Shown here: piece by piece, positions 11,238 to 13,865 of the stretch
Position numbering within the stretch: the stretch's first letter is position 1
Layout: each line of letters begins with the position of its first letter
From: Candidatus Hydrogenedentota bacterium
GTDB taxonomy: Bacteria > Hydrogenedentota > Hydrogenedentia > Hydrogenedentales > SLHB01
Direction of reading: 5' to 3'
Assembly: GCA_963668025.2 (NCBI GenBank)
Contig: CAXXTH010000017.1
Location: 1,408,001-1,472,000 of the forward strand
DNA length: 64,000 nucleotides
Notes under the pieces: generated by a model
The model's input: the letters and a program-made list of their open reading frames with translations, nothing else
Told to the model about the DNA's origin: nothing
Database searches by the model: none
Position numbers and translations under genes: made by a program

Positions 11238-12032
11238 ATGACGCAACGATTTCTGGCGCGGCTGCGCTACGAGGGAACTCATTTCTCGGGCTGGCAAGTG
11301 CAGCCGCATCTTCGCACGGTGCAAGGCGTAATCGAAGAAGCCCTGTCCCGGATGGCCGGGGAGCATATACGGGTGCAAGGCGCTTCACGTACGGATGCGG
11401 GCGTTCATGCCTTTGGGCAAACGTGCGTGTTTGATTGGAAAAAAGAGCAGGACGGCGGGCGGCTTCAGCATTCCCTCTCGGGCATGCTAGGCCCCGAGAT
11501 TCGCGTGGACGCCATCGAACCGGTTGTGGCGGATTTTGATCCAAGGCGCTGGGCCATAGGCAAACACTATGCCTATACGCTGCATCTAGGGCGGGAAGCG
11601 GATCCGTTTGCCGTCCGGTATGCCTGGCCCATTCGATGGAAGCTGGATATGGGGCGGCTCGCGGATTACGCCCAGCTTTTGGTGGGCGAGCATGATTTCG
11701 CGGGATTCGAGAGCTCCGGTTCTGCTAGCGGCTCCACTATTCGAACCATTCATGGCATAGCCGTGCGGCCCGGGGCGGTTATAGGGTCGTGTGACGCCGT
11801 GAATTGCTGGCGCATGGAATTTCACGGGAGCGGCTTCTTGTATCACATGGTGCGCAATATCGTGGGGACGCTCGTGGATGTGGCGCGCGGCCATAAGCAG
11901 GTGGACTGGATTGCCGAACGGCTACATGCCCCCGGGCCTTTCCGGGGCCGCACGGCCCCTGCTCAAGGCCTGGTCCTCATGCGCGTGTTTTATGAACACG
12001 CCGAATACGCCAAGGCGCACCAGAGGATATGA
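11238..12032 (+). CDS. truA: tRNA pseudouridine(38-40) synthase TruA
   Basis: Motifs YEGTHFSGWQVQ, SRTDAGVHA, GFLYHMVRNIVG and TAPAQGL. Confidence 0.95.
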   Translation: MTQRFLARLRYEGTHFSGWQVQPHLRTVQGVIEEALSRMAGEHIRVQGASRTDAGVHAFGQTCVFDWKKEQDGGRLQHSLSGMLGPEIRVDAIEPVVADFDPRRWAIGKHYAYTLHLGREADPFAVRYAWPIRWKLDMGRLADYAQLLVGEHDFAGFESSGSASGSTIRTIHGIAVRPGAVIGSCDAVNCWRMEFHGSGFLYHMVRNIVGTLVDVARGHKQVDWIAERLHAPGPFRGRTAPAQGLVLMRVFYEHAEYAKAHQRI

Positions 12033-12245
12033 AAAGGAAATGCGCCGTGGGGGCAACCACAGCGCACTCACAGAGGGTTTCGGCCTTGCGGATACCTTTC
12101 AGCTCGGGACTTGATATGGCGTCCGAAAGACCGTTTGTTTCGACATCCGTGTCACGTAATCCTCGACTTCCCTGTCTTGGATGAATCTTGATTGGACTTC
12201 CTTGTCCTTTTTTCCGGCCTTGGCCTCCTTGCCTCGGCCGTTATG
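12032..12245 (-). ncRNA. Candidate sigma28-dependent sRNA 1 with four CsrA/RsmA-type GGA hairpins
   Basis: Minus-strand hairpins GGCAAGGAGGCC, GGACAAGGAAGUCC, GACAGGGAAGUC and GACACGGAUGUC. Terminator stem 12041-12066 plus U-rich tail. Promoter at 12252-12278. Confidence 0.7.
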
Positions 12246-12251
12246 CAATAT

Positions 12252-12278
12252 ATATCGGCGCGTTTGGCGAGAACTTTA
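12252..12278 (-). promoter_or_regulatory. sigma28 (FliA/SigD)-type promoter
   Basis: TAAAGTTC-11 nt-GCCGATAT on the minus strand. Consensus is TAAAGTTT-N11-GCCGATAA. Confidence 0.8.
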
Positions 12279-12312
12279 GTTGGGGCGCATTCGGTTACAT
12301 CAATAGTGCGCT

Positions 12313-12437
12313 AAAAAAATAAGAGCGCCACACATGGGGACTGTGGCGCACTCAAGAAGGGTGGAACTTGGGACATCGAGACTGGTCCGGGGGACAACCT
12401 TTCCGGCCTCTTTGTTGTTTCCCATTCAACTTTGTTA
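12313..12437 (-). ncRNA. Candidate sigma28-dependent sRNA 2 (GUCCC-rich, weaker GGA sites)
   Basis: Same 3' block UGAGUGCGCCACA-loop-UGUGGCGC plus U-tract (stem 12325-12349). Three GUCCC motifs. Promoter at 12444-12470. Confidence 0.65.
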
Positions 12438-12443
12438 CTTCTT

Positions 12444-12470
12444 ATATCGGCCTTTTGCGGGAAAACTTTA
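12444..12470 (-). promoter_or_regulatory. sigma28 (FliA/SigD)-type promoter
   Basis: TAAAGTTT-11 nt-GCCGATAT on the minus strand. Confidence 0.82.
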
Positions 12471-12572
12471 GCCAAAATATAAAGGAAATTTATATAAACA
12501 AAATGGCATATTCTGGGACTATTTTGGCTTTATTAATGTTACAGAATGATGATACAACACATATTTAGCACT

Positions 12573-12744
12573 AATAAAGGAAAGCGCCACAATTGGGCAT
12601 TGTGGCGCACTCATGGAGGTATAGCTTAGGGACCTTGTATTCGCCTCGGCGTTGGGACGGCGCCTGGGCTGTGGGACGGTTCCGTTAGCGTAATTTCGAC
12701 TTCCGTGTCTCGGGGGGCTTCGACTTCCTTGTCTTAGCCTTGCA
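12573..12744 (-). ncRNA. Candidate sigma28-dependent sRNA 3 (GGA hairpins plus GUCCC motifs)
   Basis: Hairpins GACAAGGAAGUC (12722-12733) and GACACGGAAGUC (12698-12709), plus AACGGAAC and three GUCCC motifs. Terminator stem 12584-12608 plus U-rich tail. Confidence 0.7.
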
Positions 12745-12750
12745 CTGTAT

Positions 12751-12777
12751 ATATCGGCGGCAATGAACGAAACTTGA
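12751..12777 (-). promoter_or_regulatory. sigma28 (FliA/SigD)-type promoter
   Basis: TCAAGTTT-11 nt-GCCGATAT on the minus strand. Confidence 0.78.
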
Positions 12778-12839
12778 GCCCGAATGTAAATGGGCGTGAT
12801 GTGGATTGAATAATAAAACTTATGTGATATTTATGTGTT

Positions 12840-13865
12840 TTAATCAAACAGATGGCCTTGCGCATTTGGTGGAGGCGCCAGGCCGAAGTGGCGGTAGCCA
12901 AGGGGAGTGGCGACGCGCCCCTGCGGGGTGCGCTTGAGGAAGCCTAACTGTATTAGAAAAGGCTCATGGACCTCCTCGATGGTTTGGGCGTCTTCGCCGA
13001 TGCTGACAGCGAGGGAAGACAGGCCAACAGGCCCGCCGCTGAATTTATGGATGACGGTTTCGATGATATGGCGGTCCATGTCGTCGAGGCCCAGCGCGTC
13101 GATGCGCAGAAGGTTAAGCGCGGCATCGGCGATTTCCTGCGTGATGACGCCATCGCCCTTTACTTCGGCAAAGTCGCGCACGCGGCGGAGCAGGCGGTTG
13201 GCGACGCGGGCGGTTCCCCTGGAGCGTCCCGCCAATTCAAGCGCGCCGGTGTCTTCAATGGGCACATTGAGGATGCGGGCGGAGCGTTTGACGATCTGCT
13301 CAAGCTCGGCGGGAGAGTAGAATTCAAAGCGGCAGGTGTCGCCGAAGCGCGCCCGCAGCGGTGGCGTAAGGAGGCCCGAACGGGTGGTGGCCCCGATCAG
13401 GGTGAATCGCTTGAGGCCGATTTTCATCGAGCGCGCCGTGGGGCCCTTCCCGAGCATGATATCGACCTCAAAATCCTCCATGGCGGAATAGAGGGTTTCC
13501 TCGACCGCATGGTTAAGGCGGTGGATCTCGTCGATGAACAGGAAGTCGAACTCATCCAGGCTGGTCAGAATAGCGCTGAGGTCCGCCTGGCGCTCGATGA
13601 CGGGCCCGGAGGTGGATTTAATGTCCACTCCCATCTCATTGGCGAGAATGCGGGCGAGGGTGGTCTTGCCGAGTCCTGGCGGGCCAGAAAGCAGCAGATG
13701 GTCAAGAGGCTCGCGCCGGTTCTTAGCGGCTTCGATGGCGATGTGGAGTTTTTCCTTGATGGGCTCCTGCCCAGGGAAATCCTCGAGGCGCTGCGGGCGT
13801 ATGCGGTCGTCAAACTGCGAGTCCTCGCTAATGGGCGCGCCGCTGAGCAAGTCATTGTTAGCCAT
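12840..13865 (-). CDS. ruvB: Holliday junction branch migration helicase RuvB
   Basis: Motifs [11 protein letters not shown], Walker [27 protein letters not shown] and RTPQGR. Start at MANNDLL. Confidence 0.97.

Follow-up and report, generated by a model that had tools for sequence, protein, structure and literature searches.

What are the repeated GUCCC motifs and the CCUCC-type tract of three putative small-RNA (sRNA) genes of a Candidatus Hydrogenedentota bacterium for? These genes lie in tandem on the minus strand and fill a gap between two open reading frames (ORFs), at positions 12033-12840 of the 64,000-nucleotide stretch that we analysed (hereafter the window; assembly GCA_963668025.2, contig CAXXTH010000017.1, positions 1,408,001 to 1,472,000). 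A sequence-only reading of this DNA had proposed RNAs made of a 5' protein-binding half with GGA hairpins and a "second module", in which GUCCC motifs and a C-rich tract before the terminator would act as an anti-Shine-Dalgarno seed on mRNAs, or else as a site for a second RNA-binding protein. We consider it reasonably probable, from the comparisons described below, that the GUCCC motifs and the CCUCC tract form one conserved 3' module, a trans-encoded, multi-site antisense element against flagellin mRNAs. The sRNAs would then most likely control which flagellins are made.

The motif is strikingly concentrated at this place. All seven plus-strand GGGAC copies listed beforehand, which read GUCCC in the RNAs, are present (at 12106, 12337, 12370, 12391, 12629, 12654 and 12673), and there is an eighth one at 12515-12519, in the AT-rich spacer (12472-12583) that extends from the terminator of unit 3 to the promoter of unit 2. 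These eight copies in 568 nt form the densest GGGAC cluster of the 6.1-Mb genome on either strand; the next tier, five copies per 600 nt, is reached at nine places. With a genome-wide rate of 0.47 per kb per strand (0.28 expected per 600 nt), the Poisson probability of at least eight copies is 7e-10 per counting interval, for about 20,500 such intervals, and in the window as a whole the motif is depleted (63 copies on both strands vs. 115 expected from shuffles). The tracts said to precede UGAGUGCGC on the minus strand are also found as described, i.e., CCCUCUG in unit 1, CCCUUCU in unit 2 and ACCUCCA in unit 3.

Are these motifs conserved? A blastn search with the locus as query brought up relatives in 14 of 40 related genomes, chiefly via the 5' GGA hairpins. 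We aligned the last 85 nt of 63 units (alignment A1; 81 units had been extracted automatically, and 18 were dropped for a premature or wrong terminator call) and built from it a covariance model of the 3' module (R1). R1 matches 101 of the 135 Hydrogenedentota genomes (E <= 1e-4) and 39 of the 41 genomes of the order, including all 33 high-quality ones; in the window's genome, it finds only the three units at E <= 1e-7. Copies typically number 2-6 per genome and are often in tandem (one false family match, L147, was left out). Across the whole window, Rfam gave no match at gathering score, so none to the CsrB/Rsm, RsaE/RoxS or cuckoo/CcsR models, and at E <= 10 the region 11950-12900 gave chance-level matches only. 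Judging by these searches, we are dealing with a phylum-wide, uncatalogued RNA family of the Hydrogenedentota.

The members of this family share a common plan. A sigma-28-like promoter is followed by the nested hairpin GCC(R)AGACA(M)GGA(N)GUC(R)AGGC and a second hairpin, GACACGGAUGUC; then often by AGUUGAA; then by at least one hairpin with an xxRUCCCx loop; and finally by a single-stranded (G)UCCCA(A/U)(A)G(G)UCUUACCCUCCUUGAGUG(G)CGCC, which runs into the terminator. The consensus of the family core, GUCCCA(U/A)AGUCUUACCCUCCUUGAGUG(G)CGCC, covers the pre-terminator single strand and the 5' arm of the terminator. Between the GGA hairpins and the first RUCCC hairpin, (C)AGUUGAA is conserved in many units (e.g., L011, L013, L015, L043 and L074). 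The 69 units examined, from 32 genomes, comprise 44 with two GGA hairpins, three with four, four with one and 18 with none. Because these 18 units, unit 2 among them, still keep the GUCCC module, the latter is the core of the family, and calling it a second module no longer fits. In the predicted architecture, the 3' module is the constant core, the GGA half is optional, and unit 2 is a core-only member.

Conservation of GUCCC in homologues and its freedom from stems were the two checks fixed in advance. The motif is kept, as RUCCC, at 117 sites in these 69 units, and it is not buried, the mean unpaired probability of UCCC being 0.78 vs. 0.40 for all bases. In the minimum free energy (MFE) folds, 69 of the sites lie in hairpin loops and 9 are otherwise unpaired (78 fully unpaired), the other 39 having at least one paired base. 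Within the window, the claim that several copies are in predicted loops stands for the unit 3 hairpin GGCG-CCGUCCCAA-CGCC, for the other upstream site of unit 3 and for the terminator loop of unit 2 (unpaired probability 0.93-1.0). It stands partially for the first site of unit 2, which is partly unpaired, and for the unit 1 site, which is half-paired; it fails for 12629 and 12370, the two sites beside the CCUCC tract, for which the MFE fold predicts pairing. Since 53 different stems close the 69 loop sites, it is the loop motif that is conserved, and the stems vary. A conserved loop motif on variable stems would also suit a second RNA-binding protein that recognizes the RUCCC hairpin loops. 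Hfq and ProQ have no match in the window's genome (the assembly is 93.75% complete), and another factor could exist. However, no candidate protein was identified, and both the base before UCCC and the flanks co-vary with flagellin leaders, as described below, which is unexpected for a fixed protein site. The protein-site alternative gained no support, and we regard it as very improbable.

If the module pairs with mRNAs, which ones would it reach? Each of the three units has its own promoter with the repeat CT(A/C)AAGTT-N12-GCCGATAT, which we take to be the FliA/sigma-28 consensus; the TAAAG-N-GCCGATA-type motif is present at all three, and FliA is encoded in the genome (251 bits vs. a cut-off of 189.6). 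The sigma-28-like motif occurs 33 times in the genome vs. about 4.6 expected. It also precedes the flagellin gene fla1, as well as ORFs that, named by eye from their N-termini, are presumably FlgK and FliD. Since this promoter type pointed to the flagellar regulon, we examined the flagellin genes, six of which (Flagellin_N) are found in the genome, together with a single CsrA (91 bits) directly adjoining FliW. The leader of fla1, which has the same sigma-28-like promoter, contains the nested hairpin GCCGAUGCAAGGAUGCAAAGGC and a Shine-Dalgarno (SD) hairpin, and the 5' GGA half of the sRNAs is a close copy of it.

The 3' module has its counterpart in the leaders of fla2, GGCGGG-AAGGGACUC-CCCGCC...GCGCUCAAGGAGGGAAAGAACAUGGG, and fla4, CGGGG-AUGGGACU-CCCCG...GCACUCAAGGAGGGUUUGAACAUGGG. 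The hairpin loops of both carry (U/A)GGGACU, the complement of the sRNA motif (A)GUCCC(A), and GCACUCAAGGAGGG is the exact complement of the family consensus CCCUCCUUGAGUGC. Across the family, the RUCCC loops complement the GGGAY loops of the hairpin located upstream of the SD in flagellin leaders. Moreover, the sRNA core consensus is the reverse complement of flagellin translation initiation regions (TIRs) such as CCACUCAAGGAGGGUAAGACUAUGGGAC, being colinearly antisense to, in turn, CACUCA, the SD GGAGG(G), the spacer UAAGAC and AUG-GGA-C. Indeed, UGAGUG is antisense to the conserved CACUCA upstream of the SD, UCUUAC to the spacer between SD and AUG, and the GUCCC beside the CCUCC tract to the flagellin start AUG-GGA-CUU (Met-Gly-Leu). 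Other genomes show longer matches; in G010, CCACUCAAGGAGGGUAAGACUAUGGGACUUCG faces sRNAs reading GUCCCAUAGUCUUACCCUCCUUGAGUGG. Even the terminator hairpin of the sRNAs occupies the place of the reverse-complemented leader hairpin, and 17 of the 69 terminator loops carry UCCC. Rather than a short, generic anti-SD seed of the RsaE/cuckoo type, the 3' half is about 30 nt of colinear antisense to flagellin TIRs, plus loops complementary to the leader loops. The more general idea of a 3' mRNA-pairing half fared better, the motif being conserved, accessible and complementary to flagellin leaders, which argues for such a role.

We searched the whole genome with a 39-position nhmmer profile of the core. 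Units 2, 3 and 1 are matches 1-3, and the antisense strands of the fla4 and fla2 TIRs come at ranks 5 (E 6.1) and 13 (E 11), both in register; it would be very unlikely for two of the ten best non-self matches to fall by chance on two of the six flagellin TIRs in 12 Mb. Other top matches of the profile were dropped as targets, as none of those inspected sits at a ribosome-binding site. Run on 116 kb of flagellin loci taken from six genomes, the profile gave 41 rows, of which 34 lie antisense on flagellin TIRs and account for 17 of the 33 Flagellin_N genes there; the remaining seven comprise three weak ones in the fliW-csrA locus, two at one place in the long leader upstream of fla3, and two others. 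By local alignment, the core of unit 2 is complementary to the fla4 TIR at 22 of 26 positions with one gap, from GCACUCAAGGAGGG to AUGGG, that of unit 1 at 15 of 17, and that of unit 3 at 12 of 13.

A regulator that acts through short C-rich seeds, like RsaE/RoxS or the cuckoo RNAs, and represses many mRNAs whose ribosome-binding sites are G-rich, with flagellin as only one of them, would also fit part of these observations. Indeed, CCUCC equals the anti-SD sequence, GGGA is a pairing partner of UCCC, several accessible motifs are present, and many non-flagellin sites have equal or better duplex energies. However, conservation is not limited to the seeds: GUCUUA, UGAGUG and GUCCCAU correspond to flagellin-specific flanks, the SD-AUG spacer and codons 1-3. 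Of the 13 best matches of the profile in the genome, only the flagellin TIRs are TIR-positioned. Together with the lack of an Rfam family match and the cognate-specific co-evolution with flagellin leaders reported in the next paragraph, this makes a generic anti-SD regulator rather unlikely in our view.

Do the sRNAs and the flagellin leaders change together? We compared the 69 sRNA units with 134 flagellin leaders, running the tests on the 115 with the strongest Flagellin_N matches and setting the 19 weakest aside. The base before UCCC (140 NUCCC sites) is A in 66 cases, G in 51, C in 11 and U in 12, i.e., A or G in 117, and the base after GGGA in the leaders is U in 59, C in 40, A in 27 and G in 9; the two preferences are complementary. 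In the window's genome, all seven sRNA sites read GUCCC, and the leaders read GGGAC four times and GGGAU once. Beyond the UCCC:GGGA pairing itself, contiguous Watson-Crick extension into the flanks averages 2.40 nt when sRNA and leader come from the same genome vs. 1.78 nt when they come from different genomes, a difference that none of 10,000 label permutations reached. The swapped-flank control (1.71 vs. 1.59, p = 0.13) and the wrong-register control (1.40 vs. 1.47, p = 0.71) are flat, so base composition fails to explain the effect. The same is observed for the core: its local antisense score against TIRs is 24.7 for cognate and 20.6 for non-cognate pairs (reached by none of 10,000 label permutations), while the sense-orientation control gives 11.85 and 12.02, respectively.

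The two partners also occur together. Of the 135 genomes, 96 have both the sRNA and flagellin and 28 have neither; five have the sRNA alone, all of them fragmented or incomplete assemblies, and six have flagellin alone. The 28 genomes without either include 21 of the 23 of one family (f11), all four of one genus (g46) and a 100%-complete genome (G007), and the only two flagellin-bearing genomes of family f11 are also its only two sRNA-bearing ones. Two genomes of other orders (f14, f15) have flagellin without an R1 match. This distribution implies several separate joint losses of sRNA and flagellin, in genomes that are related and hence non-independent.

These two sets of data bear on the idea that the module is an evolutionary relic, born from an inverted duplication of a flagellin 5' region, whose complementarity reflects descent and no present pairing function. 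Such an origin would account for the colinearity of the entire module, terminator hairpin included, with the reverse-complemented flagellin leader. Yet 101 of the 135 genomes of the phylum keep the module, complete with a promoter and a terminator of its own, and it is lost together with flagellin. Furthermore, since complementarity is higher within than between genomes, continuing selection or exchange would be needed. We give the relic only the slimmest chance.

Which flagellins would be concerned? The leaders fall into three classes, for which we computed antisense scores against the sRNAs of the same genome and counted ACUCA before the SD and AUGGGAC as the start of the gene. Class A (n = 33) has the nested hairpin AUGCA.GGA..GCA, a sigma-28-like promoter within 320 nt in 27 cases, ACUCA in 2 and AUGGGAC in 9, and its mean antisense score is 15.4. 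Class B1 (n = 27), with the hairpin GCGCA.GGA.GCGC, has such a promoter within the same distance in only 3 cases, ACUCA in 24 and AUGGGAC in 19, and scores 24.2 on average. Class B2 (n = 51), with the GGGAY loop, has the promoter in 4 cases, ACUCA in 30 and AUGGGAC in 36, with a mean score of 27.2. Because the B classes outscore class A (B1 and B2 vs. A, Mann-Whitney p = 3.5e-12), the module appears to be aimed at the flagellins that do not have the promoter type of the sRNAs nearby. Matches to a consensus regular expression for sigma-54 promoters were not found before the type B flagellins, where such promoters may still be present.

The class difference also bears on a role of the RUCCC loops within the sRNA system itself, in which their partners would be GGA loops carried by the same sRNA or by its siblings. 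CsrA sites would thereby be masked, by self-inhibition or as an anti-sponge effect, with unit 2 antagonizing units 1 and 3. The GGA hairpins of the sRNAs do resemble leader hairpins, CAUCC can pair with the GGAUG of hairpin 2 in many genomes, and the GGA:UCCC ratio differs among units. But the GGA loops of the window (GGAAG, GGAGG and GGAUG) offer GUCCC only 3 bp, against 5-6 bp for the GGGACU of fla2 and fla4; the antisense scores are lowest for the type A-like leaders, of which the 5' half is a copy; and the flanks of the core match TIRs, not hairpins. Masking of this kind seems to us distinctly improbable. Pairing in cis of the CCUCC tract with the GGA hairpins was set aside as well, as the tract keeps its CCUCC irrespective of the hairpin sequence (GGAAG, GGAGG or GGAUG).

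For an antisense element directed at flagellin mRNAs, we propose the following course of events. When FliA is active, the sRNAs would be made. Their RUCCC loops would contact the GGGAY loops of type B flagellin leaders, and these loop-loop contacts would nucleate the pairing. The core would then pair from about -25 to +7, covering the ribosome-binding site and the start codon and blocking initiation, and those flagellin paralogues that have no sigma-28 promoter nearby would be translated less. We infer both the pairing in cells and repression as its effect, the latter because sRNAs covering a TIR usually work in this way. Where it is present, the 5' GGA half, as a copy of the sigma-28 flagellin leader, would probably titrate CsrA, binding it as a type A leader does. 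In the hag mRNA of B. subtilis, CsrA reportedly binds a GGA-bearing hairpin loop and SD sites; both mRNA sites that the sRNA would cover, the GGA-bearing hairpin loop and the SD, are of this kind, so that sRNA and CsrA would act on the same sites.

A further step may be envisaged, more tentatively. One RNA would join, on its 5' side, a copy of the CsrA-binding leader of the sigma-28 flagellin to, on its 3' side, the antisense of the leader and start of the other flagellins. On sigma-28 firing, it would free the late flagellin from CsrA and silence the others, acting as a flagellin-type switch that is encoded in RNA and tied to the partner switch of FliW and CsrA. With neither Hfq nor ProQ found, the CsrA dimer may even be the matchmaker, holding the GGA hairpin of the sRNA and the GGA site of the leader while the antisense pairs. 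We put this forward as a possible but doubtful extension. CsrA is the only global RNA-binding protein that we identified in this genome, which has at least three sRNA genes of the base-pairing type.

Several points weigh against an antisense role directed at flagellins, and concern first the RNA and its match. The 39 of 117 RUCCC sites with at least one paired base are one of them, as are the two of the seven GUCCC copies of the window that are predicted to be paired. The complementarity is imperfect in the window's own genome, where flagellin is not among the top matches of a Watson-Crick-only blastn-short search, and the nhmmer E-values of 6.1 (fla4) and 11 (fla2) are not significant alone. 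Duplex-energy ranks of the flagellins are good, not top: among 30,557 pseudo-TIRs, RNAduplex places fla4 at rank 72, fla2 at 115 and fla1 at 415 for the core of unit 2, and the best flagellin for the core of unit 3 is fla2 at 209 (we used the energies as ranks only, these being noisy, GC-biased and dominated by long, interrupted GC-rich duplexes). CCUCC could pair with any strong SD, and other targets are possible. Per genome, G before UCCC and C after GGGA are modestly associated (Spearman 0.39, p = 0.037, 29 genomes, uncorrected for phylogeny). Other points concern regulation. The fla3-fla2-fla4 cluster has a sigma-28-like promoter about 675 nt upstream, so "without a sigma-28 promoter" means only that there is none within 320 nt. 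The sign of the regulation is an assumption. Finally, expression support is weak, and the metatranscriptome contig over the promoter of unit 2 and the spacer, described below, could reflect read-through or DNA.

How is the locus itself laid out? The gap is bounded by a plus-strand ORF that ends at 12032 and a minus-strand ORF that starts near 12840, recognized by eye and taken here as truA and ruvB, respectively. Each unit has a sigma-28-like promoter of its own and ends in an intrinsic terminator, in which a U-tract comes after a GC-rich hairpin, and each is predicted to be a separate sRNA gene. All the coordinates below are on the minus strand, and the RNA ends are inferred. Unit 3 comes first in the direction of transcription. 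Its promoter, CTCAAGTT-N12-GCCGATAT, lies at 12751..12778 (found both in the direct-repeat family D2 and by regular expression), and its RNA, at 12575..12744, comprises two GGA hairpins (12696-12713 and 12720-12737), two upstream GUCCC, the anti-TIR core and the terminator; R1 matches it at 12575-12656 (E 2.9e-13). The GUCCC at 12673..12677, in the context ACCGUCCCACA, is predicted to be unpaired (probability 0.97-1.0), and the one at 12654..12658 sits in the loop of the GGCG-CCGUCCCAA-CGCC hairpin in the predicted fold, where GUCCCA is complementary to the UGGGAC of the fla4 leader loop. The anti-TIR core, GGUCCCUAAGCUAUACCUCCAUGAGUGCGCC, extends over 12604..12635, including the GUCCC at 12629-12633; it aligns to the family core and is matched by the nhmmer profile. 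The terminator hairpin is at 12584..12608.

Unit 2 is transcribed from a predicted promoter at 12444..12471, CTAAAGTT-N12-GCCGATAT (direct repeat and regular expression). Its RNA, at 12315..12437 (R1 match, E 3.7e-13), has no GGA hairpins and three GUCCC, located in a hairpin (12391), beside the core (12370) and in the terminator loop (12337). The anti-TIR core GUCCCAAGUUCCACCCUUCUUGAGUGCGCC is at 12345..12374 and the terminator hairpin, with the loop AGUCCCCAU, at 12322..12352; the AGUCCC of this loop is complementary to the GGGACU in the leader loops of fla2 and fla4. The 5' end of unit 2, GUUGAAUGGGAAAC (12418-12432), is predicted to pair with its own GUCCCAAGUUC (12366-12376); this 5' segment resembles a flagellin start site (AUGGGA) and might mask the seed. 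Short ORFs of 41, 54 and 66 aa over unit 2 were judged not credible as coding, because the middle of the units varies in length and sequence among homologues.

Unit 1 has the promoter CTAAAGTT-N12-GCCGATAT at 12252..12279 (direct repeat and regular expression). Its RNA, at 12035..12245 (R1 match, E 3.8e-8), contains four GGA hairpins (12140-12157, 12163-12180, 12193-12210 and 12222-12233), one GUCCC (12106-12110), the anti-TIR core GCCGAAACCCUCUGUGAGUGCGCU (12061..12084) and a terminator hairpin (12038..12069) that overlaps the putative truA stop. The ratios of GGA hairpins to GUCCC given by the sequence-only reading are accurate for unit 1 (4:1) and for unit 2, mostly GUCCC, with no canonical GGA hairpin vs. 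three GUCCC; for unit 3, we count two clear GGA hairpins and three GUCCC, close to the claimed ratio of about 3:3.

Is the locus expressed? Metatranscriptome contigs from two runs of one study cover unit 2 only. One of them, 99% identical, spans 12361-12514, including the promoter of unit 2 and part of the spacer; the other, from a close relative, spans 12312-12424 and ends in adapter sequence at 12424. The flanking genes are nearly without cover, and the contigs show neither strand, ends nor level; they are at most a weak hint that unit 2 is transcribed, and a lack of cover elsewhere in the locus is uninformative. The contig that reaches into the 12472-12583 spacer could stem from read-through from unit 3 or from library DNA.

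The sigma-28-like promoter located about 675 nt upstream of fla3 is CTAAAGTTTGGCTCAAGCCTGCCGATAA (L093:1923-2598, minus strand, i.e., G000:C17:644342-645017 in the window's genome). It has no ORF within the 260 nt that follow, and the non-coding stretch downstream contains five GGGAC, several GGA-loop-like motifs and the CAGUUGAA motif of the sRNAs; it is one of the nine places of the genome with five GGGAC per 600 nt. This stretch could be a long leader binding CsrA and the sRNAs, or a further RNA gene.

In public records, the 22-nt GGA hairpin is found at 61 loci, 30 of them labelled Candidatus Hydrogenedentota or Hydrogenedentes. Fourteen others are labelled Nitrospirales or Nitrospiraceae (L031, L036, L037, L042, L046, L047, L049, L056, L067-L069, L076, L082 and L083). 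Among the matches listed, the Nitrospirales-labelled loci have the same promoter, hairpins and 3' module, and L047 reads by eye like L021, which comes from a genome of the window's family. The labels of these metagenome-assembled genome (MAG) records probably name the wrong taxon. On a MAG labelled Rhodospirillaceae bacterium, the hairpin occurs at seven places (L030, L032, L051, L053, L055, L064 and L078), with the preceding 60 nt or so nearly identical in most copies. None of the six copies examined has a sigma-28 promoter or the 3' module, and this looks like a different repeated element with a CsrA-type hairpin.

How does this family compare with known systems? To our knowledge, the control of CsrA in bacteria that have FliW is generally ascribed to FliW and flagellin mRNA and not to small RNAs, and the flagellin-targeting sRNAs that we know of so far come from Vibrio, are UTR-derived (i.e., from untranslated regions) and are bound by ProQ. 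In the literature, supplements being outside the scope, we found no work pairing Hydrogenedentes with sRNA, and no such RNA is described among the listed matches on sRNAs of CsrA, sigma-28 and FliW and on base-pairing with flagellin mRNAs. With CsrB/CsrC and RsmX-Z, the locus shares repeated GGA hairpin loops in unit 1 (four) and unit 3 (two), unit 2 having none, and a genome that encodes CsrA. It differs from them by the absence of an Rfam match, by a sigma-28-type promoter instead of a GacA/UvrY-type one, by only 2-4 GGA hairpins, by the presence of FliW beside CsrA, and by a predicted base-pairing module that is absent from the classical sponges. McaS of E. coli is said to combine in one RNA CsrA-binding GGA sites and the antisense regulation of motility and biofilm mRNAs (reportedly csgD, flhD and pgaA, in an Hfq-dependent way); the units described here are unrelated to it in sequence and would have other targets, and McaS is not known to be sigma-28-driven. 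The UCCC motifs of RsaE and RNAIII of S. aureus and those of the alphaproteobacterial cuckoo (CcsR) RNAs are reportedly exposed C-rich motifs directed against G-rich ribosome-binding sites. These RNAs use short seeds and have many targets. The likeness is at the level of exposed C-rich motifs only, at least two of which lie in unpaired regions here; the difference is a complementarity of about 30 nt specific to flagellin TIRs, without an Rfam match.

Other sRNAs are part of flagellar regulons. In E. coli, the sigma-28-dependent MotR, FliX, FlgO and UhpU fine-tune the flagellar hierarchy (PMC10578931), and in C. jejuni, CJnc170 and CJnc230, also under flagellar sigma factors, do likewise (PMC11187230). 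These sRNAs are UTR-derived or processed and have other targets (the fliC coding sequence, flgM, ribosomal genes), and the accessible parts of the two reports describe none of them as a leader mimic fused to an anti-leader. The closest analogue is FlaX of Vibrio cholerae, an sRNA of the flagellar regulon that pairs with several sites in the 5' UTR of the paralogous flagellin mRNA flaB and blocks 30S binding, tuning filament composition (PMC11879080). FlaX is cut by RNase E from the flaA 3' UTR, depends on RpoN/FlrC (class III) and is stabilized by ProQ (PMC11879080). In the family described here, complementarity to several sites of the flagellin 5' region including the ribosome-binding site, and co-evolution with it, are seen in silico; if the RNAs do pair there, they would act like FlaX. 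The family differs from FlaX by its unrelated sequence, by its stand-alone location between putative truA and ruvB, with sigma-28-like promoters and not in a flagellin 3' UTR, by a genome without a ProQ or Hfq match, and by CsrA-type GGA hairpins in most of the sRNAs. Stand-alone sigma-28 genes fusing a leader mimic to an anti-leader would be a different build of such a regulator. In the largely uncultured Hydrogenedentota, the sequence of the family appears to name its own target, and this offers a case for the co-evolution of sRNAs and flagellins, and for filament composition in multi-flagellin bacteria without Hfq or ProQ.

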